From Parcubacteria bacterium C7867-007 (GTDB lineage Bacteria > Patescibacteriota > Minisyncoccia > Phycocordibacterales > Phycocordibacteraceae), in NCBI GenBank assembly GCA_001189195.1, contig LFCQ01000006.1, forward strand, positions 1 through 54,840: 54,840 nucleotides of DNA. The letters run 5' to 3'. Position 1 is the stretch's first letter. Each line of letters opens with the position of its first letter. The notes beneath the pieces were generated by a model. That model made no database searches. It had not been told where the DNA came from and worked only from the letters and a program-made list of their open reading frames with translations. Shown here one piece after another: positions 7,552-48,455 of the stretch. The position numbers and the translations under genes are program-made.

Positions 7552-7639
7552 CATCTAATTATATAGAGAAAAACCCAAGCTTGTTAGCGTACAGGATATA
7601 CTCATTAATAATTTACCTAGTTCGCTATACTATCAATAT

Positions 7640-12581: not shown

Positions 12582-12672
12582 TGGCGGAGACGGAGGGATT
12601 CGAACCCTCGAGGGGCTATTAACCCCTGCCTCGTTAGCAGTGAGGTACTTTCGACCACTCAGCCACGTCTCC
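12582..12672 (-). tRNA. tRNA-Ser, anticodon GCU (CCA encoded)
   Basis: The reverse complement is GGAGACGTGGCTGAGTGGTCGAAAGTACCTCACTGCTAACGAGG-long variable arm-GAGGGTTCGAATCCCTCCGTCTCCGCCA. Anticodon loop CTGCTAA. Confidence 0.88.
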
Positions 12673-13260: not shown

Positions 13261-13365
13261 CCGAGATCCCTCTATAGCAGTGAACTACACCTGCACCACA
13301 TACCTGCTGTACAGGCATTCCTCTACGTTTTATTCAGTATTTCTTTAGACTGTGCACCGTAATGT

Positions 13366-13371
13366 TACAAT
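13366..13371 (+). promoter_or_regulatory. -10 box TACAAT (extended TGt) 6 nt upstream of the pilM ATG
   Basis: TTAGAC-15 nt-TACAAT-gcaggc-ATG with no SD. The geometry implies a leaderless transcript. Confidence 0.5.
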
Positions 13372-13377
13372 GCAGGC

Positions 13378-14463
13378 ATGTCGTTATTTGGAAATCTATT
13401 CGGCAGCAAGAAAAGCAGGAGTGTACTTGGAGTAGACATAGGCTCCTCTTCATTGAAAGTGGTACAGCTGCGCCGTGACGGAGAGACTGCGGTACTTGAA
13501 ACCTATGGAGAACTTGCACTCGGCCCCTACGCGGGTGGAGAAGTGGGGCAGGCGACAAACCTGCCAGCAGCAAAGATTGCAGAAACCCTCAAGGATCTTC
13601 TGGGTGAATCGAGTATCACCACTGCAGATGCAGGTATTTCTATTCCATTCTCCCGTTCACTTCTAACTCTCGTAGAGTTGCCATTCCGTGAGAATCCTGA
13701 GGAACAGAAGACCATGATAGAGCTCGAGGCGCGAAAGTATATCCCCGTACCTGTTTCTGAAGTTCAGTTGGACTGGTTCATCGTGCCCGAGCCTGCTGCA
13801 GAGGGTGCTCCAAATCCAACGAAGATGAAGGTGCTTATCGTTGCAGTCCATAACGATCAACTCGCACTCCTGCAAAGTGTTATCGCAGGAGCGAACCTCA
13901 CCGCGACATTTTATGAAATTGAGATCTTTAGCACTATTCGTTCAGTAGTTGATGAACCAGTTCTTCCGGTACTTGTTTTGGATATCGGTGCATCAGCAAC
14001 AAAGGTGTATGTGGTTGAGCACGGGGTGGTAGCACTTTCACATAACATTCCACAGGGAGGTCAGGATGTAACGCGCACCATTGCAACTGCTCATGGATAT
14101 TCAGTATCTAAAGCTGAAGCACTTAAAAAGGAGCATGGCTTTATCGAAGGGAAGGGGGTATATGATCGAAAGACGATTGAGCTTATCTTCTCGCGCATAT
14201 TTGACGAGGCAAAGCGTGTACTTACACAGTTTGAGACGAACCATCAAAAGACTATCTCAGCGATAGTACTCACTGGTGGTGGGGGTGTAACCCCAGAGCT
14301 AGTGAAGTACGCCAAGGAATTCTTCTCTCTCGATGTGAAACTTGCTGATCCTTTTGGAAAGACACAAGCGCCTGCCTTCATGCGCCCAGTACTTGAACAA
14401 ATTGGTCCAGAGTTTGCTGTTGCAGTGGGAGTTGCACTTCGTAAGCTTGAAGAAACAACCTAA
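13378..14463 (+). CDS. pilM: Type IV pilus assembly protein PilM (actin-like ATPase fold)
   Basis: 361 aa. VLGVDIGSSSLKVVQL and VLDIGASATKV phosphate-binding motifs. First gene of the pilus cluster. Confidence 0.88.
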   Translation: MSLFGNLFGSKKSRSVLGVDIGSSSLKVVQLRRDGETAVLETYGELALGPYAGGEVGQATNLPAAKIAETLKDLLGESSITTADAGISIPFSRSLLTLVELPFRENPEEQKTMIELEARKYIPVPVSEVQLDWFIVPEPAAEGAPNPTKMKVLIVAVHNDQLALLQSVIAGANLTATFYEIEIFSTIRSVVDEPVLPVLVLDIGASATKVYVVEHGVVALSHNIPQGGQDVTRTIATAHGYSVSKAEALKKEHGFIEGKGVYDRKTIELIFSRIFDEAKRVLTQFETNHQKTISAIVLTGGGGVTPELVKYAKEFFSLDVKLADPFGKTQAPAFMRPVLEQIGPEFAVAVGVALRKLEETT

Positions 14464-30509: not shown

Positions 30510-30796
30510 AGCGGGGTAGAGGAGTGGTACCTCGGGAGGCTTGAATTATTCGGGCGTGCGTAGAAGCAATTTTACGTAAGATCATCTGCCAAATTCGGTG
30601 AAACCCTCACGTCAGAAATGACGAAAGGCAATGCCGAGCCAAGCCTGCTTCGGCAGGAAGGTGTAGAGACTAGACGGTAGACATCCCTATGGGATGAAGG
30701 CATAGTCCAGACCACAAATTCGTCCTCGGACGAAGCAACGAAAGTTGTAGCGGCAAGCATAACCTCCAGACGCCGGTTCAATTCCGGCCCCCGCAA
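30510..30796 (+). tRNA. Intron-containing tRNA, spliced anticodon CAU (Met or lysidine-Ile2)
   Basis: 5' exon (A)GCGGGG-TA-GAGG-AGTGGTA-CCTC-G-GGAGG-CT. 3' exon CATAA-CCTCC-AGAC-GCCGG-TTCAATT-CCGGC-CCCCGC(A). The joined anticodon loop is CTCATAA. A normal cloverleaf forms only after 30542-30757 is removed. Confidence 0.8.
30542..30757 (+). ncRNA. Group I intron, IC3 (tRNA-intron) type
   Basis: Core strings AAATTCGGTGAAACC, GGCAATGCCGAGCCAAGC and GAAGGTGTAGAGACTAGACGG match the remembered Azoarcus tRNA-Ile / cyanobacterial tRNA-Leu intron core. P1 gives a U-G wobble at the 5' splice site, the terminal G serves as omega-G, and P10 can form as ATAA/TTAT. Confidence 0.75.
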
Positions 30797-30804
30797 CACG
30801 ATTA

Positions 30805-30838
30805 AACACAAAAGCGCGATTACTCGCGCTTTTGTGTT
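30805..30838 (+). terminator. Rho-independent terminator after the split tRNA
   Basis: AACACAAAAGCGCG-attact-CGCGCTTTTGTGTT followed by TC. Confidence 0.75.
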
Positions 30839-30900
30839 TCTAGGCTAAATTTAAATACTGTGCTTAAGTGACTCTAGAATTCGAAACAAGGAGAATCACC

Positions 30901-31176
30901 ATGAACACAGGCAGGAAGGGTCCTGTTGCTAGGGATCTGCACGGTCTCCCCATTACTGTCGATGATCTACCCAGTCCTGATACGAGGAGATGGGTTCCAA
31001 ACCGAAAGGCCATCGTCGTGAATGCTGTTCGTGGCGGCCTGATCTCTCTGGAGGAGGTCTTGATTCGCTACAACATGACCGAACGAGAATTTCGTATCTG
31101 GGAACAGGGGCTTGAAGATGCGGGCGCAGAGGGACTTAAGACTACGAAGTTCCAAAAGCGAAAGCGGAGAGCATAG
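30901..31176 (+). CDS. SciP-like / DUF1153-family small transcriptional regulator
   Basis: 91 aa. DLPSPDTRRWVPNRKAIVVNAVRGGLISLEEVLIRYNMTEREFRIWEQ...GLKTTKFQ follows the Caulobacter SciP pattern (DLPxPxTxRWVxxRKAxVVxAVRGGLxSLEE). AAGGAG lies 7 nt upstream. Confidence 0.7.
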   Translation: MNTGRKGPVARDLHGLPITVDDLPSPDTRRWVPNRKAIVVNAVRGGLISLEEVLIRYNMTEREFRIWEQGLEDAGAEGLKTTKFQKRKRRA

Positions 31177-31200
31177 AACAACTAAAATGGCGGAAAAGAA

Positions 31201-31233
31201 AATGGCCCGGTCGTCGCAAGACGCCGGGCCATT
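31201..31233. terminator. Bidirectional terminator between the SciP-like and CtrA-like genes
   Basis: AATGGCCCGG(t)CGTC-gcaa-GACGCCGGGCCATT flanked by A-rich and T-rich tracts. Confidence 0.75.
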
Positions 31234-31258
31234 GAATTTTGCTTTTAGGGAACGCTCG

Positions 31259-32169
31259 TTAAACAGCAGTTTGTACAGGTGGTTCTTGACGCTGCGTCTC
31301 AAGAAAACTCTCAATTGCCTCCCGGATCAGCAGCGAAACTGTTGTGCCCTGGTTATCCGCGAGCTTTTTCAGTCTTGCCTTGTCCGTGGTGCGGAATGTG
31401 AGAACTTCATTCAGTTCTGTGTCCGTTGCTTCAGATTCTTCAGGGAGCTCAAGAGTTTGCGAGCGATTTTGTGCATCCCCATCAATAATCTGGTAGCCAC
31501 GCCCCCAGACAGTTTCGATGACCCGACCCGCATCCGGATGAATCTCATCGAGCTTCTTGCGGATCTTGCAGACGAAGACGTCGATGATCTTGATCTCCGC
31601 CTCGTCCTCAATGGCCGAGTACAGATTCCCAAGAATCATCTCTTTCGACTGCGTACGCCCTCGATTGGATGCGAGCAGTGAAAGAATGAGCATCTCCTTT
31701 CCGGTGAAGTGAACGAACTGACCGTTCACGCTCACCGTTTGTGTGGAGAGGTTCATGCGAATCAGAGCGTCGCCGATCTTCAACTCGCGAACGTCAAGTA
31801 CGAGACCTTTCCCTCGGCGTGTCGTTGCCCGAAGGGAAGCCGCAAGTTCTCGCGGGTTTGCCGGACTGCGGATAAAATCGTCGCCCCCATTCTCAAGGAA
31901 CGACGCACGCTGTTCCGACCATGATCCCTCCCGGTTCCCATTGGAGAGTCCGATGACCGATGTAAGCACGTTCTTGCTCCGCAGGTAGCGGACCGCGAAG
32001 ATGCCCCAATTGGTCTTGTCGAGATCGACCACGATTGCGTCGTAATCGCCATCGACAATCCATTCGTATAGGTCTTCAGGTGTCTCCACCTCATCTGTGA
32101 CCGTCAAGAATCCCTTGCCTCTCAAGAAGGCCAGGGTGGTCTCATCGACCCCACTTCAAAGATCTTCAT
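31259..32169 (-). CDS. CtrA-like OmpR-family response regulator with C-terminal RHH-like extension; 5' end frameshifted
   Basis: wHTH motif KIIDVFVCKIRKKL...IETVWGRGY (CtrA: KIIDVFICKLRKKL...IETVWGRGY). Receiver D in VVDLD. Tail LTFRTTDKARLKKLADNQGTTVSLLIREAIESFL. The SD+ATG at 32169 is out of frame with the body, which is open from 32155. The track ORF starts at TTG 32125. Confidence 0.7.
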
Positions 32170-32250
32170 TCCAGCCTCCTCTCAATGCATTCGTTGGTTG
32201 GATTACTTGAAGTAAACTGTTAAAGGTATTTTCTGTCAAATAAAAGAATT

Positions 32251-32274
32251 AGGACCCTCCTGGAGGAGGGCCCT
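32251..32274 (-). terminator. Terminator downstream of the parB-like gene
   Basis: AGGACCCTCC-tgga-GGAGGGCCCT (one mismatch), followed on the minus strand by a T-rich run. Confidence 0.6.
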
Positions 32275-32290
32275 AAACAAGATATCCTGT

Positions 32291-33208
32291 TTACTGTTTT
32301 TCGTTGATCTTGTCGCGGAGCTTCTCAAGCACGGAGATGATGGCATTGATTGTTATAGTATCGTTCTTTCGATCCTGCTCATCATCGTTGCGGTGTAGAT
32401 AGAGATCGTCGATGTCGAGGTCGTTGAGCATGCGGCCGGCTGTCGTGCGAGCACGTCCCAGGAACGAGGTGAAGACATTGTAGTCGTCGCTGGGTTTCCT
32501 GAAACGGCCGCCAGCACGATAGCCGCTGCTACCAGACCGATGTTCTATCAGTGCGCGCGTTTCCACCACACCGAGATTCCGTTCGATTGCTTCCTGCGCA
32601 ACAGTAATCCGAAGATCTGGTGCGCTTTCAGGAATTCCCCGAACGATGTCGATGGCTTGCGTCACTGTCAGTTGGGTGTCCTTCGAACGATTCGGATCCA
32701 TCAAGGTCTTCGCCTTGTCGGGCAAGGTGTTGAGCTTCAGGTAGTTCTCGACATACGTCCTCGACTTGCCACGAAGGCGCATTAGGTCTTCGATAGTTTC
32801 GCCATCTTCGCGAAGTCGATGATAGGCCGCCGCTTCGTCCAATGGCGACAGGTCTTCACGGTGAAGGTTTGCGAGAGTGGATTTCCTGAAGTGCTGCTTT
32901 AGGTCTTTCACCACCTCCACGAAAGCATCGATTATGGGCTCTTTACCTGTACGCTCGAAGATAAGTCCAAAGGCTCGGAGACGTCGTTCACCGTCGATCA
33001 GGATGAACGCGCCGGGCTCTCCCGGCTTCGTAGTCACTTTGATTGGTTGCTCCTGACCATCAGTCTCGATGCTGTCCGCAAGGGCTATGATACCCGACTC
33101 GATGAAGAAGGTCCGGGGCTGACCCTCGAACCGTTCGATGCGGCTGAACCGGATTGGCAGAGGCCTGCCAAGGTTTTCTTCAGCCACAGCTGCTGCTGCG
33201 TGTGCCAT
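32291..33208 (-). CDS. ParB/Spo0J-family (ParB N-terminal domain) protein
   Basis: 305 aa. QPIKV...LIDGERRLRAF arginine-patch motif and HTH GKSRTYVENYLKL. AAGGAG lies 5 nt upstream. No parA alongside. Confidence 0.75.
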   Translation of the reverse strand: MAHAAAAVAEENLGRPLPIRFSRIERFEGQPRTFFIESGIIALADSIETDGQEQPIKVTTKPGEPGAFILIDGERRLRAFGLIFERTGKEPIIDAFVEVVKDLKQHFRKSTLANLHREDLSPLDEAAAYHRLREDGETIEDLMRLRGKSRTYVENYLKLNTLPDKAKTLMDPNRSKDTQLTVTQAIDIVRGIPESAPDLRITVAQEAIERNLGVVETRALIEHRSGSSGYRAGGRFRKPSDDYNVFTSFLGRARTTAGRMLNDLDIDDLYLHRNDDEQDRKNDTITINAIISVLEKLRDKINEKQ

Positions 33209-33384
33209 GGTAACTCCTTGGCTAGGTGTTTGAGATCAAGGTACACAACTGGCGTGATAATGCCGCAAATCTGTAATTTAAGCAAACCGTATCCTACCAA
33301 TTATATTTCCTCGTCATTTATGGCGATCGATCCTTAAAATATTCAAATAATCGTGTCAGATTATGTTTCTTTTTCACGAGACGT

Positions 33385-33948
33385 ATGCGCCTTAATACCG
33401 TACACTTAACTCCAATGACCCCTTTCAACTCGACCGTAATCATTGTGGTTGCGCTCCTGGCCCTCTTCCTGATCAGTATTACGGTCTCTAAGTACGCTAT
33501 GCATGATAACTTCCTGCGTACGCGCTTCATCATGAGTGCATTATTTGGATTTATTGTCCTTACGCTAACCATCTCTTTCTGGAAGTTTGCCCTGATGACA
33601 CTGCCTTTCACTGTCCCTTCAATGCTTGTTGGTATTGGTCTCGGATACCTTATCGGTGTTCGTACTGAACAACAGAAGATTCTCACGCATGGCATCGAGC
33701 ACTATATGGAACGCTTTGCTCGTATTGAACACAAAGATGTGAAGAACCTCACGTGGTGGAGTCTCATTAACTTCTATTCAATTATGTGCGGTCTTATCCT
33801 GATCAACCTTATCGGTTTCACCAACGTCATCCTTCAAGGATCTCCAGGCTTTATTATCGCCACCAGTGTTGTGGGGGCAGCTTTCATTGGTTCGATCCTT
33901 CCATACCTGTACCACCTCTGGACTCTTCCTTGTGGTGAACGCTGTTAA
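33385..33948 (+). CDS. Hypothetical polytopic membrane protein
   Basis: 187 aa with 5-6 hydrophobic helices. Start uncertain (33385 or 33409). Confidence 0.5.
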   Translation: MRLNTVHLTPMTPFNSTVIIVVALLALFLISITVSKYAMHDNFLRTRFIMSALFGFIVLTLTISFWKFALMTLPFTVPSMLVGIGLGYLIGVRTEQQKILTHGIEHYMERFARIEHKDVKNLTWWSLINFYSIMCGLILINLIGFTNVILQGSPGFIIATSVVGAAFIGSILPYLYHLWTLPCGERC

Positions 33949-34784
33949 GAGAGTGCGAGGGAGATACTAAACACAACAAGGAGGATAAGTGAGTACAAGA
34001 AGGTTTTGCGTGCCCACCGTGTTTCATTTTGTACAAAGAACCCTGCAGCTGACATAAGGACCCAGACAATGGTGAGGATCGTCATGGGGATGGTGTACAT
34101 CAGACCAAGATTATTCACTAGGTACAATGCGTAGATTGCCACAGCGAAGAGAAGAGTGTATACGAGCATCAACACCTTGGTGAGAAGCATACCTTTAGAC
34201 ACCGGCATCACAGGAAGATTCGCGTTGCGATAGTCCTCAAGACGGAATATTGCTATAGCAAAGAAGTGCGTCATCTGCCACGTAACTAGTATAAGAAAGA
34301 GGAGAATTGCTGTTTCATTAACAGTGTTCACCACTGCCACATACCCCACAACAGGAGGTACTGCTCCTGCAACAGCACCAATAATGGTGCTGTGTGATGT
34401 TATGCGTTTAGCTGGCGTATAGAGCGCTATGTATGCAAACACTCCAAAGAGGGTAACGAGGAAAGTGAGTAGGTTGGTGAATAGGTAGTGGGTACCAAGA
34501 CCAACAGCTATTAGAGCAATACCAAAGATGAGAGCGGTACGAACGGGAATCTGTCCTGTGGGAATAGCACGTCCTTGAGTACGCTTCATGCGCGCATCAA
34601 TATCTCTATCAATAACGTTGTTTATCACGCACGCACCAGCGATAGAAAGCGAGAGACCAATAATAGTGGCGGCAAGAAGAGGGAAGGATACTGAGAAGCC
34701 TGCAGCAAACACAAAGGCAGCAAGCGCTGTCATCGCATTGCCGTATACCATCCCTGGCTTGGTGAGTTGGTAGTACGCGTTCAT
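33945..34784 (-). CDS. cyoE: Protoheme IX farnesyltransferase (heme O synthase)
   Basis: 279 aa. UbiA-family motif NNVIDRDIDARMKRTQGRAIPTG. Last gene of the cyo operon. Confidence 0.9.
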   Translation of the reverse strand: MNAYYQLTKPGMVYGNAMTALAAFVFAAGFSVSFPLLAATIIGLSLSIAGACVINNVIDRDIDARMKRTQGRAIPTGQIPVRTALIFGIALIAVGLGTHYLFTNLLTFLVTLFGVFAYIALYTPAKRITSHSTIIGAVAGAVPPVVGYVAVVNTVNETAILLFLILVTWQMTHFFAIAIFRLEDYRNANLPVMPVSKGMLLTKVLMLVYTLLFAVAIYALYLVNNLGLMYTIPMTILTIVWVLMSAAGFFVQNETRWARKTFLYSLILLVVFSISLALS

Positions 34785-35152
34785 TAGTGTAGTTCGTGCT
34801 CCGGTGATACCACGCCACCCTCATAGAACTCTGTAGAGCCATGCATATGAAGTTCTTCCAGGTTACTCATGATCCAAAGGGTACCCACAATAACGATCGC
34901 CATAATCACACCGGTGAGTACGAAGATAAGAAGATTCCATCGTGGCTTTGATTCACTTCCCATGTGAAGGAAGAATATGAGTTGTACGAATAACTGAATG
35001 AGTGCGGTGATAACAATTGCAGGAACTGCGAGGAGGCCCAGGGTTGGTGCAACCCAGAAGGCAAGAAGAGTGAGTCCTATGGAAAGGATAAAGCCGATCA
35101 CGTATGAGCTAAGAGTTCCGTGCGGAATGATGTCGTGAGTGGGTGTGGTCAT
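34784..35152 (-). CDS. cyoD: Cytochrome o quinol oxidase subunit IV
   Basis: Start at the internal ATG (MTTPTHDIIPHGTLSSYVIGFILS...), which overlaps the cyoC stop as ATGA. Three TM helices. Confidence 0.8.
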   Translation of the reverse strand: MTTPTHDIIPHGTLSSYVIGFILSIGLTLLAFWVAPTLGLLAVPAIVITALIQLFVQLIFFLHMGSESKPRWNLLIFVLTGVIMAIVIVGTLWIMSNLEELHMHGSTEFYEGGVVSPEHELH

Positions 35153-35718
35153 AGAGAGCCGAGTAAGTATACGAGAGAGAACAGACAGATCCACACGATG
35201 TCGAGGAAGTGCCAGAAGAGGGAGAAGTATACGATTCGCTGCATGGTCTTTTCGGTAAGGCCACGCACACCTAGATAGATAAAGAGTGCTATAAGCCAGA
35301 GAAGACCAACGGCAATGTGTAGTCCATGTGTGCCAACAAGGGTGAAGAATGCAGAGAGGAAGGCACTGGTTGCCCAACTATGTCCTTCTGCAACTAACAT
35401 ACTGAACTCGCTCAGCTCCATACCAAGGAACACAGCTCCAAGTGCGAAGGTGGCTAGAAGAGAGAGCCAGACCCCAACGCTATTCTTAGCGCGTGCCGCC
35501 AAGAGCGCTAACCCACACGTAAAACTGCTCGTAAGCAGGATAAGTGTTTCAACTAATACAAATGAGCGATCAAAGAGTTCCATACCACTCGGTCCTCCCG
35601 CTGTTTGTGTATGGAGTACTGCATATGCAGCAAACAGGGAAGCGAACAGAATACAGTCGCTCATGATGTATACCCAGAGACCAAAGTGAACCTGTTCGTG
35701 TGAGTGGTGCTTTTTCAT
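35149..35718 (-). CDS. cyoC: Cytochrome o quinol oxidase subunit III
   Basis: 189 aa with five TM helices. FGLWVYIMSDCILFASLF and FWHFLDIVWI motifs. Confidence 0.9.
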   Translation of the reverse strand: MKKHHSHEQVHFGLWVYIMSDCILFASLFAAYAVLHTQTAGGPSGMELFDRSFVLVETLILLTSSFTCGLALLAARAKNSVGVWLSLLATFALGAVFLGMELSEFSMLVAEGHSWATSAFLSAFFTLVGTHGLHIAVGLLWLIALFIYLGVRGLTEKTMQRIVYFSLFWHFLDIVWICLFSLVYLLGSL

Positions 35719-35720
35719 AG

Positions 35721-37673
35721 CTATTTTCGTAGACGTTGCTCCGTTGCTTTCACCACCTGTGCTGGCACCACATATTCAATTTCGTCATTAAAGGAACGAA
35801 GGATAATAGTGACGAATACTCCAATCAAAGAGACAGGAAGGAGCCACCAAATATGCCAGACAGTTCCAAATCCAAAGAGGAACGCAAAGGCAGCAATGAA
35901 CAGACCAACGCTACTATTCTTTGGAAGAAGAATATCTTCATAATGGGTTTCTTGTGTCTGCTTCTTTTCTTTCATCGTCCACCATGCATCCCGACCAACC
36001 ACTTTAGGGATATGTGCAAAGTTATAGAACGGAGCAGGGGATGGTACCGACCATTCCAGAGTACGGCCGTTCCAGTAATCACCCGTGCGATCGCGTCTTT
36101 GTTTTCTCTGAAGCACGCTCACAACATAGCAGAGCAATTGTACGGCAACTCCAAGGGCAATGATGCCAGCACCAACGCCTGCCAGCACTAGCAGGGGATG
36201 GAATCCACTTGCCGCTTCAACGAAGTTCACGCGGCGTGTCATTCCCATGAAGCCCAGAACATAGAGAGGAATGAATGCTGCTGCAAAGCCAACAATCCAG
36301 AACCAGTATGATACTTTGCCAAGCATCTCATTGAGACCAAAGCCAAAGATCTTTGGGAACCAATACACAAAACCGCAGAAGTATCCAAAGAGTACACCGC
36401 CGATCACCATGTTATGGAAGTGAGCCACGAGGAATAGACTATTGTGCAGTTGGAAGTCCACTGCAGGTACAGAAAGAAGTACCCCAGTCATACCCCCAAT
36501 CGTGAAGCTAAAGAGGAATCCCATGAACCAAAGCATAGGAACAGAATACTTAATGCGTCCACGGAACATGGTAAAGATCCAGTTAAATACTTTTACGCCT
36601 GTTGGAATCGCAATCACCATCGTTGCAATACCAAAGAAAGCATTCACATTTGCTCCTGCACCCATGGTGAAGAAGTGATGCACCCATACACCAAAAGAGA
36701 GGAAAACAATTGCCATAGTTGCCACCACCATGGACGTGTATCCAAACAGTCTCTTTTGTGCGAATACAGGAACAATTTCAGAGAAGATACCAAAGGCAGG
36801 AAGGATAAGAATATATACCTCTGGATGTCCCCATGCCCAGATTAGATTCACATACATCATCACGTTGCCGCCAAGATCGGTGGTGAAGAAGTGCATACCG
36901 AGTACGCGATCCAAAGAAAGCATGGCGAGGGTACCGGTGAGGATTGGGAAGGCAAAGAGCACCAGAAGCATTGAACCAAGTACCGTCCATACAAAGATTG
37001 GCATACGCATAAGGGTCATACCGGGAGCACGCTCTTTAATGATCGTCACAATGAAGTTCACCGCAGCGAGCAAGGTACCGATACCAGAGATCTGCAGTGC
37101 CCATATGTAGTAATCAACACCAACACCCGGACTGTATTCAATACCTGAGAGAGGTGGATAGGCCAACCATCCGGTTGCTGCGAATGATCCCACGACCAGT
37201 GATAGATTCACTAATACTGCACCGGTAGCAGTGAGCCAGAAGCTAATTGAGTTAAGGAGGGGAAAGGAAACATCACGGGTACCAATCATTAGTGGCAGAA
37301 TGCAGTTGATGAGACCGAACATAAATGCCATCGCCACAAAGAAGATCATGATCACTCCATGTGCAGTGAACACTTGTGCGTAGTGGTCAGGTGAGAGATA
37401 TCCCGCACCCTCTCCCACTGCCACTGCTTGCTGAGCACGCATCATGAGTGCATCGATACCTCCACGCACGAGCATGAGGCCCGCAAGAATGAGATACATG
37501 ATGCCGATCTTCTTAGCATCAAGAGTAGTGAGCCACTCGGTCCAGAGCCACTTCCAACGTTTAGTTATGGTGAGGAGGAGTATTACAGAAAGCGCACCAC
37601 CCACCACCACAATCTGTGCACCAGTCTCTACTGGACCGTGTATGAATGCTTCAGGTGTAAGAAGACCAAACAT
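35721..37673 (-). CDS. cyoB: Cytochrome o quinol oxidase subunit I (heme-copper oxidase)
   Basis: 650 aa. [24 protein letters not shown] and VAHFHNV-like motifs. Confidence 0.95.
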
Positions 37674-37674
37674 A

Positions 37675-38550
37675 TTAGTGAGGGTGCTCTGCCTTTGATG
37701 CAGGCTTGAGATAGGACTGGATGATCGCTGAGAATGGCATGGTTACGCTTCCATAATAGCGTACCGGGCCTGCGTTGCTTGGTGCTGAAAGTGCCTCATA
37801 GCTTTCTGGTGTGAGTGCAGTACCTGTTTCTTTTGCGTCTGACACCCAATTCTCAAAGTCTTCACTACTCATGGCGCGTGCCGCGAAGGTCATTTGTGCA
37901 AAGCCGTCACCACTGTAGTTTGCAGAACGTCCAGCAAATACCCCCGGCTCAGGGGAAATAAGATGTAGCTTGGTACTCATGCCAGTCATGGCGTACATTT
38001 GTCCGCCAAGTGACGGAATCCAGAATGAGTTCATAGGCGCATCCGCGGTGATACGGAATTCAATGGAGCGATCTGCCGGGAATGCCACTTCATTTACACT
38101 GGCAATTCCTTCCTCTGGATATATAAACAGCCACTTCCATGGCAGAGCCACCACCTCCACCACAACAGGAGGTTCGGAATGATTCAGTGCACGCATAGGA
38201 TCTAATTCATGAGTGCTGCTCCAGGTGAGGGCAGCAAGTACCAAAACAATTTCTAAAGGAACAGACCACCAAATTAACTCCTCCATCGCAGAGTTCTCCC
38301 AATTTGGCGTGTACTTTGCTTTTGTATTTTCTGCACGATAGTACCAACCAATGAAAATGATCAGTATGAATACCGGTATGACGACAATAAGCATTAGGAG
38401 GGTGGTACGTATCATCAGATCACGTTCCAACACAGCAATAGTCCCCGCTGGATCAAGCACAGGGAATGATCCACCACTTGCCAGTGCAGCAACAAGTACG
38501 ATGAATCCAATAACACTGAGAGCTATAAGTGCGAGGAGATAAGGCTTCAT
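37675..38550 (-). CDS. cyoA: Cytochrome o quinol oxidase subunit II (quinol type, no CuA ligands)
   Basis: 291 aa. [34 protein letters not shown] parallels E. coli CyoA [34 protein letters not shown]. The CuA Cys motif is absent. Confidence 0.9.
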
Positions 38551-42006: not shown

Positions 42007-43701
42007 ATGAAGAAAGATTATTCACAACTTAGTAAAGAGGAACTGGTAAAGCTTGTTGAAAAGCTTGAATCTCGTAAAAAATACGGGTTGATTTGGGATG
42101 AAGAAAAAGTCCAGGAAGAGTTTGAAAAAGAGGCACAGAACGCCCTACCTATCCTCAAGGAAATAAAGTCAAAAGAAATAACCGATCGTAAGCCTGCTCC
42201 TAACCACATCCTCATCGAGGGTGATAACTATCACGCTCTTTCTGTTTTGAACTTTACCCATCAGGGAAAGATTGACCTCATTTACATAGATCCTCCATAC
42301 AACACAGGTAATAAGAGCTGGAAATACAACAACGATTACGTAGAGAAAGAGGACTCATATAGGCACAGCAAGTGGATCTCTTTCATGAGCAAGCGTCTAC
42401 GGCTTGCAAAAAATCTCCTCAAAGAAGGCGGAACGTTGATGTGTGCAATCGACGAGAACGAGCAGGCGCAGCTAGGTATGCTGCTCGAAGAGATATTTCC
42501 GTATCCGACGCACGAAGTGCACTGTATTGTCATCATCCACAATCCTGGTGGCGTGCAAGGAAAGAACTTCTCCTATTCACACGAGTATGTGTATTTTGTT
42601 ATTCCAGGAGGGAAGACGGCAATTGGCTTGCAGAATAGAGACGAAAATCCAGACGTTCGTCCTCTAAGAGATGTTTCGACAGGGAACCATTTGCGAGTTG
42701 ATGCAAAAAATTGCTTCTATCCTATCTATGTTAAAGATGGAGAAATTATTGGATTTGGAGACGTTTGCCCAGACTCTTTCCATCCAAAATCTGCAAACAT
42801 ACAGAGAAAGGATGGTGTTCTTGAGATCTATCCAATCGACACACAGGGTAATGAGCGTAAATGGGTATTTGCTCGACAGACTGTTGAGTCTATTCACGGT
42901 GAGCTTTCTATAGAGTATAACCGACAGAGAAAAATCTGGGATGTGATCAGAAAGAAGACTCGTTTTACCTATAAAACTGTTTGGGATGATAAGCGTTTCA
43001 ACGCAAATATTTTTGGTACTAAATTGCTGAGTCAAATCATCGATATCAAATTCCCGTTTCCTAAATCAATGTACGCAGTCAAAGAGTGTATACAGGCTGT
43101 TATTCATTCAAAGGATGCAATTGTCCTCGATTTCTTTGCAGGATCTGGTACTACAGCACACGCTGTTCTTGATTTAAATAGTGAAGATGGCGGACAGAGA
43201 AGTTTTATTCTAACGACGAATAATGAGAGTAATATCTGCGAAGAGGTAACCTATCCTCGGGTTAAGAATATTATTAAGGGCTACACAAACCGTATTTCAG
43301 GGAAGCCTGTAGACGGCTACGGTGGTAACTTAAAATACTTCAAGACAAAGTTTGTAAAAATGTCAGCCGCTAAGGATGAATTAAATATTCGCCTTGCAAA
43401 CGAGTGTACTGAAATGCTTTGTTTGAGAGAGGGAGTGTTTGAAGAAGCAAAGAGTACTTCTGACTATAAGATTTTCAAACAAGGAGATAGAATTCTTGCC
43501 GCTTACTATTCATTAGATCGAGATGCACTAAAAGATCTCAAGAAGGATCTTGATAAGATTGAAGGTGAAAAAATCCTTTATTGCTTCACCCTCGATCCTC
43601 TGGGACTAAGTAAGAGTGATTTTATTGGCTGGAGCAAAGTGAGACTTGAACCGATTCCGCAAAAGATCCTAGATGTGTATAAACAAATTTATGAGTATTA
43701 A
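42007..43701 (+). CDS. mod: Type III restriction-modification DNA methyltransferase (Mod; beta-class N6A/N4C)
   Basis: 564 aa. Motif IV IYIDPPYNTGN at the N-terminus, motif I DFFAGSGTTAHAV at the C-terminus, and a variable region between them. Confidence 0.88.
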   Translation: MKKDYSQLSKEELVKLVEKLESRKKYGLIWDEEKVQEEFEKEAQNALPILKEIKSKEITDRKPAPNHILIEGDNYHALSVLNFTHQGKIDLIYIDPPYNTGNKSWKYNNDYVEKEDSYRHSKWISFMSKRLRLAKNLLKEGGTLMCAIDENEQAQLGMLLEEIFPYPTHEVHCIVIIHNPGGVQGKNFSYSHEYVYFVIPGGKTAIGLQNRDENPDVRPLRDVSTGNHLRVDAKNCFYPIYVKDGEIIGFGDVCPDSFHPKSANIQRKDGVLEIYPIDTQGNERKWVFARQTVESIHGELSIEYNRQRKIWDVIRKKTRFTYKTVWDDKRFNANIFGTKLLSQIIDIKFPFPKSMYAVKECIQAVIHSKDAIVLDFFAGSGTTAHAVLDLNSEDGGQRSFILTTNNESNICEEVTYPRVKNIIKGYTNRISGKPVDGYGGNLKYFKTKFVKMSAAKDELNIRLANECTEMLCLREGVFEEAKSTSDYKIFKQGDRILAAYYSLDRDALKDLKKDLDKIEGEKILYCFTLDPLGLSKSDFIGWSKVRLEPIPQKILDVYKQIYEY

Positions 43702-46015
43702 TCTTAAGCAATACCAAGAAGATGCAGTAAACCGCTTAATTGAGACGGCGGTCAAACTATTGGACTACGATGGTCCCGGTGAGGTCTGCGTATTCCAATC
43801 TCCTACAGGTAGTGGGAAGACGGCGATGGTTGCTAAATTTATCGAGGGATTAATCAAGGAACTTCCTGACGAGGATCTATGTTTCGTCTGGATTACCCTC
43901 GGAAAGGGGGATCTCCATCTCCAAAGTAGACATAGTCTCAATAAGATTTTTGGAGGAGCTCCGAGAGTTTCTCTTGTTGAAGAAGAATTTACTGGTGGGC
44001 GCGAACGTATCGTTCAAAACGAGGTTGTTGTCGCTAACTGGGAGAAGCTTCGCAACAAGGATCGTTCAGGTGATTGGAAGAATCTTTTGATGAAAGATGG
44101 TGAGAAACTTAATTTCAGGGATGTACTCGAAGAGACGAAGGAGCAGCGGAAAATAATTCTCATAATTGATGAAAGCCATGTAAACGCAGATACAGCGCGT
44201 GCTAATGAGCTCCGTGAACTTATTGGGGCAGATATTGTGCTCGAAATGAGTGCAACTCCGCGTCGTCCTCAACAGGAAATTGGGTTTGCGCGCGACTTGG
44301 CTACTGGTGGTGCTGGATACATTGTTGTTGATCCAAAGGACGTGATCGAAGAAGGAATGATTAAAAAAGAATTAATCATCAACGAAGAAATTGAAAAGAT
44401 AGCTACATCTGAAAGCGATTCGCAGCAGGTGGTGCTTGAAGCGGCATACAATAAGCGCCTAGAACTTAAAAAAGCCTTTGAGAAGGAGGGGGCACCAATA
44501 AATCCCCTAGTCCTAGTACAAATTCCCACCGCCGAAGCGGGAGAAGTAAAGATTGAAGCAGTCAAAAAATTTTTGTCCGAAAAGGGTATTACAGAGAAGA
44601 ACGGCAAGCTTGCTATTTGGCTCGCAGAACAAAAGTCAGACACGATTGATTGGATAGCCGAACCTGATAACGAGATCGAATTCCTTATTTTCAAACAAGC
44701 AATCGATACTGGCTGGGACTGCCCGCGAGCACATATCCTCGTTAAGTTCCGTGAGACCACAAGTGTGGTGTTTGAGATCCAAACTGTTGGGCGTATTTTA
44801 CGCATGCCCGAACAAAAACACTACGCAACTGAGATCCTCAATAAGGGGTACATCTACACCAACCTTAAGTCTATTGAGGTAAAGAAGGAAGAATACAACC
44901 CCAACATAATCAAGCACCTGAAGGCAGAACGAATTGAGGCATACAAGCCGATCAAGCTTAAGTCATACTACAAATCTCGTGTTGATTACGGGGACGTAAC
45001 TTCGAGTTTTGCCAAGGTATTTGCTGATGTGGCAAACCAAGAATTCACCATCAAAGGCACTAAGGTTGCTGATAACCGGAAGTCGGCTACTGCCCGCGGT
45101 ATTGATCTTGATATCAAGAAGTATCAACAGGAACTAATCGCCGATACTGCAATTGATGCCAAGGATCTTGATGACTTGAGCAAGATCAGCCCTGATGCGA
45201 TGGCTAAACTGAGTGTGGCCGCAGACGAACTCCAGGTATTTTTCGAACAATTTATTAAATCAAACCTTGGATCGTTTAGAAACGTAAAGCGTTCAATTCC
45301 AAGCGTGAAGTCTGCTATTTACCAATGGTTCAGGAAGTACCTAGGTTCTGAGGAGTGGGCAGAAGAGATCTTGCTCATCCAACGAGTGTTTTTGCATGCA
45401 AAGAATCAGGTGCTATTTAAGCGAGTTCTTGAACGGGCTATCGAGCAATACCGTATTGTGAAGGAGGCTGAGGTACGAGAGAGGGTGGAAGAGAGTGAGC
45501 AGTGGACTGACTTCGAGCTTCCTGTCGAGCAGTTCTATAACGAGCACGCTGATGAGAAAATGAAAGCGCGCAACTATGCTTACGAGCCTTGTTATCTTAA
45601 TCGTGACCGATCAAAGCCCGAAGAAGATTTTGAGGATTTCTTGAACTCAAACAGTTCAGAGGTTTTGTGGTGGTGGAAGAATGGAGAGAATAAACTCGAG
45701 TATTTTGGCATCAAATACGAGTATGAAGGACAGATTTTTACGTTCTACCCTGACTACCTTGTTCAATTCAAGGACGGCCGCCTTGGTATTTTTGAGACAA
45801 AAGATTCAGGTGATCGTGACGGCAGAACATATACCAAAGCAAAAGCGGAGGCGCTTCAGAAATACATTCTGGATTCGAAGAACAAGAAAGTGTTTGGAGG
45901 TATTGCGATCAAGAAAGGTTCTGATTGGTATCTGAATCAAGACCCTCAGTACGAGTGGTCTGATGTTGAGAGAGGGAACTGGGATAACTGGACTCTCCTG
46001 GAGAAGATAATTTAA
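43691..46015 (+). CDS. res: Type III restriction enzyme Res subunit (SF2 helicase + PD-ExK nuclease)
   Basis: SPTGSGKT, DESH, SATP and QTVGRILR helicase motifs. C-terminal YPDYLVQF...GIFETK nuclease motif. Overlaps the mod 3' end. Confidence 0.85.
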   Translation: MSINLKQYQEDAVNRLIETAVKLLDYDGPGEVCVFQSPTGSGKTAMVAKFIEGLIKELPDEDLCFVWITLGKGDLHLQSRHSLNKIFGGAPRVSLVEEEFTGGRERIVQNEVVVANWEKLRNKDRSGDWKNLLMKDGEKLNFRDVLEETKEQRKIILIIDESHVNADTARANELRELIGADIVLEMSATPRRPQQEIGFARDLATGGAGYIVVDPKDVIEEGMIKKELIINEEIEKIATSESDSQQVVLEAAYNKRLELKKAFEKEGAPINPLVLVQIPTAEAGEVKIEAVKKFLSEKGITEKNGKLAIWLAEQKSDTIDWIAEPDNEIEFLIFKQAIDTGWDCPRAHILVKFRETTSVVFEIQTVGRILRMPEQKHYATEILNKGYIYTNLKSIEVKKEEYNPNIIKHLKAERIEAYKPIKLKSYYKSRVDYGDVTSSFAKVFADVANQEFTIKGTKVADNRKSATARGIDLDIKKYQQELIADTAIDAKDLDDLSKISPDAMAKLSVAADELQVFFEQFIKSNLGSFRNVKRSIPSVKSAIYQWFRKYLGSEEWAEEILLIQRVFLHAKNQVLFKRVLERAIEQYRIVKEAEVRERVEESEQWTDFELPVEQFYNEHADEKMKARNYAYEPCYLNRDRSKPEEDFEDFLNSNSSEVLWWWKNGENKLEYFGIKYEYEGQIFTFYPDYLVQFKDGRLGIFETKDSGDRDGRTYTKAKAEALQKYILDSKNKKVFGGIAIKKGSDWYLNQDPQYEWSDVERGNWDNWTLLEKII

Positions 46016-46019
46016 TCTT

Positions 46020-46550
46020 CTTTTTACACAACTCAATTTTCCCGGTAAGGCATCCTAAAAGTTCTCGCTTCTCAAGCTCGGTGCCTTCTTGAAGGAGAAA
46101 TTTCGCATAGTTTCGTATATCGATCTGCTCTACGTTCACCTCTGTACTGCTGCCTATTAGCATTTGCTGAAATTTCTTGAAACGCTCAACCTCAGATCAA
46201 ATTTTTGATCTTGTGCCGATTTCATCAATTGAGATATCGTCAAACATCTGAGTTAGCTGACTGATTAGGCTGGTCTCGTTTATGTAGCCGCACTCGCAAT
46301 TGCGGTCTCGAACCTTTGTGCATCCGTAGTATATATGGGTGTTTGTTTGTCCGTTCTTTAACTTTTTGTACTTTTCGTCAGCTGTAATTCCTGATCCGCA
46401 CAAACCGCAGATCATCAAGCGCGCAAACGCAAAGTCTTTCTTCTCGCCTCTATGAGTATCACGCTGAGAATCCATTTTCTCCTGAACCCGTTTGAATAGC
46501 TCTGTAGAAATAATTGCTTCGTGCCTTCCAGCGGTACCATTTGCCCGCAA
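46020..46550 (-). pseudogene. Large serine recombinase remnant (C-terminal recombinase/zinc-ribbon/coiled-coil part only)
   Basis: GRHEAIISTELFKRVQ...CGLCGSGITADEKY...YYGCTKVRDRNCECGYI (zinc ribbon). Interrupted by a stop at 46197 and continues in another frame (46163 downward). The N-terminal resolvase catalytic domain is absent. Confidence 0.7.
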
Positions 46551-46560
46551 ATAAAGTAGA

Positions 46561-46594
46561 AAGTCACCAGCAGAATGTTATCTGTTGGTGACTT
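46561..46594 (-). terminator. Terminator of the minus-strand three-gene operon
   Basis: A 13-bp stem AAGTCACCAGCAG / CTGTTGGTGACTT (one G-T pair), followed on the minus strand by TTCTACTTTATTT. Confidence 0.7.
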
Positions 46595-46615
46595 GGTGTG
46601 CTTTCGTAATTGATT

Positions 46616-47332
46616 CTATCTTGGATCCGAAGCTATGAGTGCTCCGTAATCACGGCTCTCAATATCTGGCATATATTTGTTAACAACTCTCAATAAACCA
46701 ATTGGACTTCCTTTAGAATGGAATTTAAATACCGGATCAGGCTTTAAGATGTTTGGTAGTTTCAGAGAGGGTTGTTTTGGGCAGTCTTCCCAAACTCTCA
46801 ATGAAAGAAGTTTTGAATTCTCATGCGCATACCACAGAGCAATCTGGTCCTGTGAATAAGGAAGACCTCCATACATGCTTTCAAGCATAGTTAGGTACTC
46901 ATTCAGGCCATTTAGACGCGTAAAGCCAATGCATAATTTAATATTATTCACTGCCCAGATCTGCTGAGCATGAATACTCATAGCCATACCTAGTCCTGGA
47001 ACCGTAGATACTGTTGATACGCCAAAGAAAGTTTTAGCATTATCGCTATGACGACGTCGGCCATGTACCGAGTCACTGGCAATCCGTTCACTCGCTATGA
47101 AGTCTTCCGTATCTTTAGAGGAAAAATTTATAAAACGTCCAAAGTAGTATCCAGAAACTTGGCCTTTATATTCTCCGACTAGAAACAATGGTGACTGTTC
47201 TTCGTACCAGATTGCTAATTCAGAGCGTGAAAGTATAACCGCACCCTGAGATTTCCAAACCTCTGCTTCAATCTGTGCAAGGCGTTCAAGATCATTTGAG
47301 GTTACTGGACGAATATGGATTGGCGAATTCAT
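46616..47332 (-). CDS. GNAT-like acyltransferase (divergent)
   Basis: 238 aa. N-terminus IHIRPVTSNDLERLAQIE and a possible motif-A-like VPGLGMAMSI. Assignment from pattern only. Confidence 0.45.
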   Translation of the reverse strand: MNSPIHIRPVTSNDLERLAQIEAEVWKSQGAVILSRSELAIWYEEQSPLFLVGEYKGQVSGYYFGRFINFSSKDTEDFIASERIASDSVHGRRRHSDNAKTFFGVSTVSTVPGLGMAMSIHAQQIWAVNNIKLCIGFTRLNGLNEYLTMLESMYGGLPYSQDQIALWYAHENSKLLSLRVWEDCPKQPSLKLPNILKPDPVFKFHSKGSPIGLLRVVNKYMPDIESRDYGALIASDPR

Positions 47333-47358
47333 TTACGTGCACCCTAAGTTGATTAAGA

Positions 47359-47760
47359 TCATTCTGACCTAAACCTTGCTGGTGAGGTCAATCTATTAAA
47401 GTTTCTACCACGAACAAGTGTTTGTGTCTCGAAGAATTCAACTTGGAATGCTTTTTGTAAAAGAGAAGCCGCGAGCTCTGTATTAAAATCTTTGCAAGAA
47501 TATATATCAATCGTCACAAAACCCCTCTCGCTGTATGTATGTATGCTAATGTGAGACTCCATAATAAAAGTAAAGCCAGATATTCCTGCTATACCTGGTT
47601 CGTCTACAGAGACAATATGAGGCTTGCCTAGTGCGCGCATTCCTATCGCAGGAGGTAAATCTTGAAGCAGTTTGTATAAAAAGTCTTTATTGTAAGTTAT
47701 TTCCGTTGGGGAACCATAGCCATCAAAAGTGAGTAAAAGTCCGTATGGAATTTCAGACAT
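47359..47760 (-). CDS. Pyruvoyl-dependent S-adenosylmethionine decarboxylase-like proenzyme (SpeH class)
   Basis: GISGFTFIMESHISIHTYSERGFVTIDIYSCKDF parallels B. subtilis SpeD [33 protein letters not shown], including the self-cleavage ES site. Start placed at the ATG just after the upstream stop. Confidence 0.75.
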   Translation of the reverse strand: MSEIPYGLLLTFDGYGSPTEITYNKDFLYKLLQDLPPAIGMRALGKPHIVSVDEPGIAGISGFTFIMESHISIHTYSERGFVTIDIYSCKDFNTELAASLLQKAFQVEFFETQTLVRGRNFNRLTSPARFRSE

Positions 47761-47762
47761 AT

Positions 47763-48455
47763 TTATTTTCTTATTACTGGAACCATAAGTGTGTTGCTGT
47801 TCCAATATTTACAGTTTAACGGAGGTTCAACATCACAAATAGATTTGTCAATTTGTTTAAATCCTGCAGCACGTAATTTTTCTGTATGTTCATCACTGAA
47901 ATCTTGAATTTCGTCTGAATAATATGTTAAGACTCCACCTGAAACCAATAACCTATATGCATCAGAAAAGAAAGAAAAATGATTCTTATGAATTTCTTTT
48001 TCTGAGAGTGGATATGTATCAAATAATATTCCATTAATTGAATTATCTGGAATATTAGTAATACATTCTTCCCAAAAACCAAAAATAGTATCAGTTGTTA
48101 CTTTTGAATTACGACTAAAATCTAAAAGACGCTCATACACATCTCTATTTGCTTCGATAATTATATGCTTATCAATATGCTCTTTTTGAATATATGACGC
48201 TGATATACCCATTCCATAGCCCACCTCTAAAATAATGCCACCTTGCGAGCAAGCAACCTTTGCAAGTTGCTGCATGTAATTATCTTCCCAGTCCTCCATG
48301 ACTGGATGTCCTTGTATTTGAAGTGTGTGATCATCAAAAATGGCAGATGAATCCTTCCAAGTTTCTCTTTCTTTAAAGCCAATAGTAATGCGAGATTCAA
48401 CGGTATCTCTTTTTGACGATAAATCTTCTTTATTGCTAATCGCTAAATTCGGCAT
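47763..48455 (-). CDS. Guanidinoacetate N-methyltransferase (GAMT/RMT2)-family methyltransferase-like protein
   Basis: ILEVGYGMGISAS (SAM motif I), GILFDTYPLSEKE, LLVSGGVLTYYS and PPLNCKYW parallel remembered human GAMT VLEVGFGMAIAAS, GILYDTYPLSEE, LLKPGGVLTYCN and PPADCRYY. Confidence 0.7.
   Translation of the reverse strand: MPNLAISNKEDLSSKRDTVESRITIGFKERETWKDSSAIFDDHTLQIQGHPVMEDWEDNYMQQLAKVACSQGGIILEVGYGMGISASYIQKEHIDKHIIIEANRDVYERLLDFSRNSKVTTDTIFGFWEECITNIPDNSINGILFDTYPLSEKEIHKNHFSFFSDAYRLLVSGGVLTYYSDEIQDFSDEHTEKLRAAGFKQIDKSICDVEPPLNCKYWNSNTLMVPVIRK

Follow-up and report, generated by a model that had tools for sequence, protein, structure and literature searches.

A putative CtrA-like, SciP-like and ParB-like regulatory cassette of the candidate phyla radiation beside a tRNA-fMet gene of Parcubacteria bacterium C7867-007

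We analyzed a stretch of 54,840 nucleotides (nt) from Parcubacteria bacterium C7867-007 (contig LFCQ01000006.1), a member of the candidate phyla radiation (CPR), and concentrated on a block of three genes at approximately 30850-33290. The whole 54.8 kb stretch is called the window, and coordinates refer to it unless another locus is named; homologous loci or contigs are labeled L plus a number and genes of the window w plus a number. The block consists of a parB-like gene (32291-33208, minus strand, 305 amino acids (aa)), a ctrA-like gene (31259-32169, minus strand) and a convergent sciP-like gene (30901-31176, plus strand, 91 aa), and its left neighbor is an intron-containing tRNA-fMet(CAU) gene. 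CtrA and SciP are textbook cell-cycle regulators and a hallmark of the Alphaproteobacteria. An earlier note, made from the sequence alone, had located a SciP-like, CtrA-like and ParB-like trio here, and Pfam and NCBIfam searches bore out all three identities. The note had implied a single direction for the genes; in fact sciP-like lies on the plus strand and the other two on the minus strand.

The sciP-like gene is preceded by the Shine-Dalgarno (SD) sequence AAGGAG. Its 91-aa product matched the Pfam family DUF1153 (E = 8e-27), as had been proposed, together with two DUF1153 structures, PDB 2jrt (E = 3e-15) and 2oa4 (E = 5e-12), both of which are alphaproteobacterial. The SciP core (RRWV..RKA) is conserved and this small protein is a near-threshold SciP. 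A first, word-indexed search with it returned seven relatives only, and its taxonomic profile was therefore drawn from the loci described below.

The ctrA-like gene encodes a regulator of the OmpR type, in which we confirmed the CtrA strings KIIDVFVCKIRKKL and IETVWGRGY. Its long open reading frame (ORF) covers 31259-32125; the true start is an ATG at 32169 (MKIFEVG...) with a good SD sequence, and the frame is broken near the 5' end. Pfam recognized the winged-helix domain (Trans_reg_C, E = 2.5e-16), scored the receiver (PF00072) at 20.6 bits against a cut-off of 30.2, and gave a weak match to RHH_1 in the C-terminal tail. This tail (approximately 31298-31381), which resembles a CopG-like ribbon-helix-helix (RHH) domain, had been missed by the earlier reader. 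For a full-length orthologue the best NCBIfam model was that of CtrA (NF045991, 141 bits), with PhoP as runner-up at 75. Compared to true CtrA, the DNA-binding domain was 50-58% identical and the receiver 26-30%, and the DNA-binding domain was equally close to distant members of the CPR family introduced below. When plasmids (PLSDB) were searched with tblastn, giving more than 5000 matches, the best 12 listed were all alphaproteobacterial and 11 of these 12 were annotated as CtrA. CtrA and SciP are, as had been supposed, the closest characterized relatives of the two products. We also considered residues T168/T170 of CtrA (PMC6847485) as a marker of membership and dropped them, as OmpR-family members in general share the [ST]-K/R-E motif.

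From its alignment, we judge the receiver to be a degenerate, remodeled pseudo-receiver. In the CPR proteins EDD is replaced by G-[VL]-D and the Lys of K-P by Ser, Gly or His, a four-residue insert is present, and the string FLENGGDD is almost invariant and is a family signature. The position of the phospho-accepting Asp (VVDLD) and the Ser are retained, while one Asp of the acidic pocket and the conserved Lys are lost. An AlphaFold model (predicted local distance difference test (pLDDT) 83) contained an intact (beta-alpha)5 receiver and a winged helix, and its fold matches were regulators of the OmpR/PhoB type, including the atypical HP1043; the HP1043 structure, PDB 2hqr, was among both the sequence and the fold matches. 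The product has the full OmpR/PhoB architecture. As a separate observation, four proteins of 1041-1182 aa (P0268, P0269, P0298 and P0337) each gave five to seven separate matches to the CtrA-like profile, with the helix KI[IV]DVFIC, and seem to consist of arrayed CtrA-type winged-helix domains.

A frameshift that had been overlooked disrupts the window copy of ctrA-like. All homologues begin MK[IV][FL]..G[VL]D.TT..FL, and in the window this start and the long ORF are in different frames. The break is a shift of 1 nt after codon 7, at a run of four G (32149-32152, minus strand) where all homologues have a fifth base (GTG GGG GTC); the window reads GTGGGGTC and the closest homologue GTAGGGGTC. 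Joint Genome Institute (JGI) and Logan assemblies (L001 and L002) have the same sequence, possibly from reads in common with the window. The canonical N-terminus MKIFEVGVDETT would be recovered by a -1 slip on G_GGG. The frameshift could be a sequencing error, a true inactivation or a site of -1 slippage.

The product of parB-like combines a ParB/Noc-type N-terminal domain, which binds cytidine triphosphate (CTP) in that group, a helix-turn-helix (HTH) and a family-specific C-terminus. Its proposed identity was upheld by matches to ParB_N (26.8 bits, cut-off 26.3) and HTH_ParB (E = 6.5e-11) and by a GERRLRA motif, and its sequence matches in the PDB were ParB, Spo0J, Noc and KorB. The CTP-binding boxes I (QPR) and II (GERRxRA) are invariant (Q30, P31, R32, G73, E74, R75, R76). 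An AlphaFold2 model (pLDDT 85) gave Myxococcus xanthus ParB-CDP, Noc, Caulobacter ParB and KorB as top Foldseek matches. The C-terminus carries the family-specific string GGRxRKPSDDY plus helices, and an N-terminal LG(R/Q)PL motif resembles the ParA-interaction peptide. The family comprises approximately 52 clusters at 41-84% identity, beyond which the E-value drops from 1e-65 to 1e-31 (generic ParB); taxon names were available for few members only. In agreement with the earlier note, no ParA is encoded here: the ParA-type Walker A motif (KGGxGK[ST]) occurs in none of the six frames of the window.

Each cassette gene has its own promoter and terminator. Upstream of ctrA-like is a promoter-like element (32211-32239, minus strand; TTGACA, 17 nt, (TG)nTTTACT) whose position is conserved in 13 loci. 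The promoter region of parB-like (33257-33288, minus strand), with the extended -10 element TGCGGCATTAT and a -35-like TTTGCT, forms the right limit of the similarity to L106 and L269. Hairpin terminators, which the note had also reported, were found after the tRNA (30804-30839, plus strand; 16-nt arms, 100% complementary), after parB-like (32249-32276, minus strand; a 12-bp stem followed by a T-run, kept in most orthologous loci) and, as one bidirectional hairpin serving both strands, between sciP-like and ctrA-like (31194-31240), with an equivalent in most of the orthologous loci examined. We also observed a conserved element, (C/T)TGATCT(T/C), approximately 25 nt 5' of the parB-like start in the window (approximately 33225-33240) and in L065, L030, L021, L028 and L007.

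The composition of the block sets it apart from its surroundings, as the note had claimed. G+C content at third codon positions (GC3) was 0.54 for sciP-like and 0.61 for both ctrA-like and parB-like, compared to a window mean of 0.44 (standard deviation 0.07); among the 58 ORFs of the window, ctrA-like and parB-like ranked at the top and sciP-like fourth (z = 1.5-2.6). By GC3 the block is foreign to its flanks. ORF inspection and Pfam confirmed that 30840-33310 contains no integrase, capsid or replication gene. The backbone of the window is CPR-like, with a type IV pilus operon, LigA, GatCA and a cyo operon, and its PilM, PilB and response regulator are 66-67% identical to those of a Kaiserbacteria metagenome-assembled genome (MAG).

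The closest relatives of the cassette proteins lie in other CPR genomes. More than 100 cluster representatives were 50-89% identical to the CtrA-like protein, and those that carried names were Candidatus Paceibacterota or Kaiserbacteria. Proteins with a canonical receiver, that is, true alphaproteobacterial CtrA, appeared only from an E-value of approximately 1e-30, at about 40% identity overall. An exhaustive profile search returned 236 representatives at E <= 1e-30, and approximately 70 of the best 100 carried the pseudo-receiver signature; some pseudo-receiver proteins bear other OmpR-type DNA-binding domains. When the species genomes of GTDB were scanned with a degenerate DNA pattern for FLENGGDD, 13 of 97 matches were real family members, the rest being chance matches, and all 13 came from CPR MAGs.

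Gene order is conserved as well. In a set of 17 non-redundant loci, assembled from homologue look-ups and the GTDB pattern scan, parB-like was immediately 5' of ctrA-like in 16 and sciP-like adjoined ctrA-like, mostly convergently, in 10. The spacer between parB-like and ctrA-like contained, in most loci, a terminator and the promoter-like element (TTGACA, 17 nt, TGnTTTACT). The genes that flank the cassette vary between genomes. In two pairs of lineages with common flanks (L005/L107 and L003/L082) cassette and flanks were about equally diverged, and across genomes the GC3 of the cassette (approximately 0.35-0.81) was mostly in or near the range of the host flanks, L045 and L085 being exceptions. 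In the Kaiserbacteria MAG locus L030 (29-3125) the cassette lies between tRNA-Ser(GCT) and comF-like/pilM; the same tRNA-Ser(GCT) and comF-like/pilM are directly adjacent in the window (12582-13378), which makes this the reciprocal "empty site". Both ends of the cassette in L107 are flanked by tRNAs, and in L100 a tRNA-His stands between parB-like and ctrA-like. Two loci contain a second OmpR-type regulator gene, 5' of sciP-like in L069 (approximately 1647-2222) and 5' of parB-like in L045 (approximately 7496-7981).

The earlier note had regarded the trio as alien to CPR genomes. We found instead that its best matches fall within the Patescibacteria and that synteny is conserved there, the very observation the note had named as speaking for native genes. 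Because the best homologues and the conserved gene order both lie within the Patescibacteria, we conclude from these comparisons that the trio is a cassette characteristic of a CPR clade of the Paceibacteria/Kaiserbacteria type, and is native there rather than alphaproteobacterial DNA.

The copy in the window has, most likely, been gained recently by lateral exchange with a related CPR lineage. Scanning metagenome contigs with w203, the gene 5' of the tRNA, showed that the order PilD-pilins-LigA-GatCA-w203-tRNA-fMet is widely conserved and that the DNA 3' of the tRNA is variable. An empty site, which the note had suggested looking for, exists in L194, where the tRNA-fMet terminator is followed within approximately 70 nt by the orthologue of w187 (187 aa) and cyoE/D/B. 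The tRNA-fMet/w203 neighborhood that holds the cassette in the window also holds it in L106 and in L269, which comes from an independent JGI metagenome. Compared to L269, most backbone genes were 65-70% identical at the DNA level and cyoB 75%, whereas 31836-33268 (the parB-like promoter, parB-like, the spacer and the receiver half of ctrA-like) was 81.7% identical; compared to L106, the whole cassette (30952-33288) aligned at 78.6%, intergenic DNA included. At four-fold degenerate sites of identical residues, window and L269 agreed at 96 of 177 positions in the cassette (54%) and at 291 of 1015 in the backbone (29%; Fisher p = 1e-10), and for L106 the corresponding values were 55% and 33% (p = 0.001). 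The contrast is plain for single genes: cyoB, with 81% protein identity, is saturated at four-fold sites (30.5%), while parB-like, with 84%, is at 52.7%. In addition, the GC3 of the cassette fits the L269 and L106 genomes and not the window. The empty site in L194, the GC3 anomaly and the unsaturated synonymous sites next to a saturated backbone are the grounds on which we favor recent exchange.

Nucleotide similarity to relatives ends at the parB-like promoter on one side and approximately 50 nt inside sciP-like on the other, and we found no direct repeat of the tRNA 3' end and no att-like or inverted-repeat element ends, the short repeats present being at chance level. In 5 of 18 loci one end of the cassette had a tRNA, in either orientation, no more than approximately 150 nt away (binomial p approximately 0.006 with a generously set background). 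As a speculation, recombination may use conserved tRNA genes as anchors of homology. Recombination has also acted within the cassette. In L269 (8963-11245, JGI 3300059830) the receiver of the CtrA-like protein is 80-84% identical to that of the window's clade and the DNA-binding domain is of another OmpR type (36%), with a breakpoint inside the gene near window position 31836. The same locus lacks sciP-like, and this loss together with the swap of the CtrA-type DNA-binding domain is suggestive of a link between the two proteins.

A second hint of such a link comes from domain fusions, and the adjacency of sciP-like and ctrA-like in 10 of 17 loci is a further, indirect one. The CtrA-like protein has an RHH domain fused C-terminally in the window and L106 (5638-6540); in L107 (10758-11132) it is the SciP-like protein that has one, at its N-terminus. 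This alternation of the fusion partner suggests that the two proteins may act together on DNA. We propose that the CtrA-like protein would be a transcription factor that works without phosphorylation or under atypical control, and that its SciP-like partner may modulate its activity at promoters, as SciP does for CtrA. The ParB-like protein would be a CTP-dependent DNA clamp that organizes or silences DNA. The ctrA-type DNA-binding domain and sciP probably share an ancient ancestry with the alphaproteobacterial pair, by an old transfer between phyla. A related CPR lineage of higher GC would have supplied the copy in the window through recombination, as a new arrival or as a replacement, in the variable spot between tRNA-fMet and the w187-cyo genes.

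We consider this account as a whole, with its CPR cassette, its proposed mechanism, its ancient ancestry and its recent exchange, to be fairly probable. Several observations count against it. The score on the CtrA model NF045991, 141 bits, is far under the cut-off of 350, and SciP-like narrowly missed that of the NCBIfam model "CtrA inhibitor SciP" (NF051866; 97.6 bits, cut-off 100). In five complete loci sciP-like is not adjacent. Searches for CtrA boxes and parS, which the note had recommended, were run on the window and gave no support: TTAA-N7-TTAA matched once, in coding sequence (0.89 expected), TTAACCAT did not occur (1.85 expected in 54.8 kb), so that CtrA boxes were not enriched, and the parS consensus was absent at up to two mismatches, with matches at three mismatches only and none near the cassette. 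The promoter pattern of ctrA-like had no other intergenic match in the window, where no regulon is detectable. In the ParB-like family Box III reads (A/D)NLHR rather than ENLxR in most aligned members, with the Asn invariant and the Arg nearly so; as the Glu of this box is thus replaced by Ala or Asp, CTPase behavior may differ. The unlike GC3 of the two backbones partly inflates the contrast in synonymous sites, no mechanism of transfer came to light, and the copy in the window may be non-functional owing to the frameshift.

One alternative is that the cassette was inherited purely vertically at this locus in the sub-lineage of the window, L269 and L106, that L194 lost it, and that the high similarity reflects strong constraint extending to codon choice. 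The shared tRNA-fMet/w203 neighborhood in the three genomes, the vertical behavior in the L005/L107 and L003/L082 lineages and the failure to find mobility genes all fit such a history. It does not account for two genes of nearly equal protein conservation differing as cyoB and parB-like do at four-fold sites, for intergenic DNA in the cassette that is alignable at approximately 80%, or for a cassette GC3 of 0.61 that lies outside the backbone range of 0.36-0.53 and matches the L269 and L106 genomes. Because it leaves the unsaturated synonymous sites and the GC3 anomaly unexplained, we regard purely vertical inheritance as unlikely. Somewhat less likely still is that the neighbors are functionally unrelated, the ParB-like protein being simply the ParB of these organisms for chromosome partition and condensin loading and the regulator pair controlling other things such as type IV pili. 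The LG(R/Q)PL motif, the chromosomal ParB and Noc proteins as closest structures, the separate promoter and terminator of each gene and the pilus operon abutting the cassette in L030 could be read in this way; on the other hand, parB-like and ctrA-like stay side by side in 16 of 17 loci although the flanks are scrambled, and they move together, the family is sharply set apart from generic ParB, and neither ParA nor parS is visible nearby in the window.

The note itself had offered three further explanations. The idea of a remnant integrase-type island or prophage with the tRNA for an att site draws on the position of the block directly 3' of a tRNA, its foreign composition, the existence of an empty site and the excess of tRNAs near cassette ends. 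We judge it improbable, since neither an integrase nor a direct repeat of the tRNA end was found, the flanking tRNAs differ between loci and face either way, similarity stops at the parB-like promoter and inside sciP-like without terminal sequences beyond, and the window has no recombinase trace other than a fragment at a distance of 13 kb. Nor was there a specific phage, plasmid or defense match: tblastn against phage GenBank entries gave generic OmpR and ParB matches only, IMG/VR held 80 loci with CtrA-like genes of which none was of the CPR type and none had a ParB-like neighbor, PLSDB yielded nothing but true CtrA at approximately 39% identity, PADLOC nothing meaningful, and PHROGs generic families only. 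A recent direct capture from an alphaproteobacterial host or neighbor could explain the hallmark proteins CtrA and SciP, the 50-58% identity of the DNA-binding domain to CtrA and a SciP-like score of 97.6 bits for a threshold of 100. True alphaproteobacterial CtrA proteins, however, average 74% identity to each other (PMC9437464), while the ctrA-like product is approximately 40% identical to them overall and 50-89% identical to CPR proteins; its receiver is of the CPR-specific type, its nucleotide-level relatives are in CPR contigs, and the search with the ParB-like protein gave no close relatives beyond the family of approximately 52 clusters found with the CPR cassette, of which few members carry taxon names. 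Such a capture is therefore very improbable. We give the lowest probability of all to a mis-joined, chimeric contig. The abrupt change in GC3 would suit it, but overlaps of 20.9 kb and 12.4 kb in the JGI and Logan assemblies are identical to the window (possibly from the same reads), backbone synteny on both sides is exactly that of L194 and L269, the independent metagenome L269 has the cassette beside an intron-bearing tRNA-fMet, and L106 likewise has it in the tRNA-fMet/w203 neighborhood. What stands of the earlier interpretation is the protein identities, the closest relatives, the foreign composition and the insertion relative to L194; the trio is not alien to CPR, alphaproteobacterial capture and a tRNA-att element found no support, and a mis-join is unlikely.

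The favored reading of an exchanged CPR cassette can be extended. We put forward, as a tentative and rather doubtful proposal, that this CPR clade runs a CtrA/SciP-type switch on a pseudo-receiver and a dedicated CTP-binding ParB clamp, that the self-contained cassette recombines between lineages, often beside tRNAs, and that its CtrA-type DNA-binding domain and SciP were an ancient capture from Alphaproteobacteria, possibly former hosts, which would give these episymbionts control of the cell cycle, pili or chromosome organization through a circuit so far believed to be confined to Alphaproteobacteria.

The tRNA-fMet(CAU) gene to the left of the cassette (30510-30798, plus strand) had been described as a split tRNA. 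It is broken in the anticodon loop by a group I intron of 216 nt (30542-30757; Rfam RF00028, 51 bits), its exons being 30510-30541 and 30758-30798. Relatives such as L194 (1336-1407) have intronless tRNA-Met genes that match these exons, and the interrupted gene was not detected by ARAGORN. Intron-bearing copies occur in L269 (approximately 10838-11147, 80% nucleotide identity) and L200 (1389-1704, Rfam 84 bits), and the intron is absent from the orthologous tRNA in L194, L190, L192, L195, L196, L198, L199, L202 and L106. This patchy distribution among relatives points to a mobile intron. In L197 (10561-11268) and L204 (10468-11256) ARAGORN detects no tRNA, and the place that tRNA-fMet occupies in relatives holds a gene on the opposite strand for an HTH protein of 235-262 aa, which may be encoded by an intron within the tRNA gene.

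Other features of the window deserve mention. A cytochrome o-type oxidase operon (cyoABCDE-like, 33945-38550) belongs to the CPR backbone and is conserved in L194 and L269. Further along, 46197-48455 contains a truncated serine-recombinase fragment (Zn_ribbon_recom, 46197-46550) next to a low-GC stretch (GC 0.33-0.41) with an AdoMet-decarboxylase-like gene in it, and a type III restriction-modification pair (42007-46015) lies just before it. At 13 kb from the cassette, the 46197-48455 region resembles what is left of a separate island.

A conserved pair of CtrA-type DNA-binding domain and SciP is unexpected in CPR bacteria. In a full-text literature search we found no publication on CtrA in CPR/Patescibacteria groups, and some family members are already labeled "CtrA" by the automatic annotation of JGI. 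What is new here is the placement of this pair on a CPR-specific pseudo-receiver, its association with a dedicated ParB paralogue and the apparent exchange of the whole as a cassette. The cassette seems to move between genomes as a regulatory module without any recognizable mobility gene, and it gives no evidence of an alphaproteobacterial host for the organism of the window. It offers a handle on the regulation of division, pili and chromosomes in ultra-small, host-dependent bacteria, where almost nothing is known, and all of its proteins are small, soluble and amenable to in vitro tests.

Several known systems can be compared with the cassette. Phages of Alphaproteobacteria, with their CtrA homologues and regulation through CtrA boxes (PMC9437464), likewise have CtrA-like genes outside the core alphaproteobacterial chromosome. 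The viral CtrA-like genes in IMG/VR are, however, at most 40% identical near full length and have neither the FLENGGD pseudo-receiver nor a ParB-like neighbor. The phosphorylation-independent orphans of the OmpR family, such as Helicobacter pylori HP1043 (PDB 2hqr), share with the ctrA-like product a full receiver fold, degenerate phosphorylation-site residues and an orphan context. There is no close sequence relationship between them, and unlike HP1043 the ctrA-like product keeps the position of the phospho-acceptor Asp, so phosphorylation is possible. The ParB-like protein resembles the ParB/Spo0J, Noc and KorB clamps in the fold of its N-terminal domain and HTH and in the QPR and GERRxRA boxes, and it is encoded beside a small HTH protein, as KorB is beside KorA in RK2. 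It differs from them as a distinct subfamily with an (A/D)NLHR Box III, a C-terminus of its own and neither ParA nor parS in the window.

A further comparison is with the CtrA-SciP switch of Alphaproteobacteria such as Caulobacter crescentus. In many alphaproteobacteria ctrA and sciP are adjacent. The cassette likewise encodes a DUF1153 HTH protein of approximately 90 aa (RRWV..RKA..V.AV..GLIS) next to a regulator whose recognition helix, which is conserved, and wing are of the CtrA type (KIIDVFVCK.RKKL, ETVWGRGY). In contrast to the Caulobacter system, it occurs in CPR, its receiver is 26-30% identical and both equivalog scores are under their cut-offs. Neither CtrA boxes nor CckA or ChpT are visible in the window, in which the histidine kinases present are generic ones only. 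Finally, the cassette adds to the CtrA-like and SciP-like pair a dedicated ParB paralogue and, in some genomes, an RHH domain.

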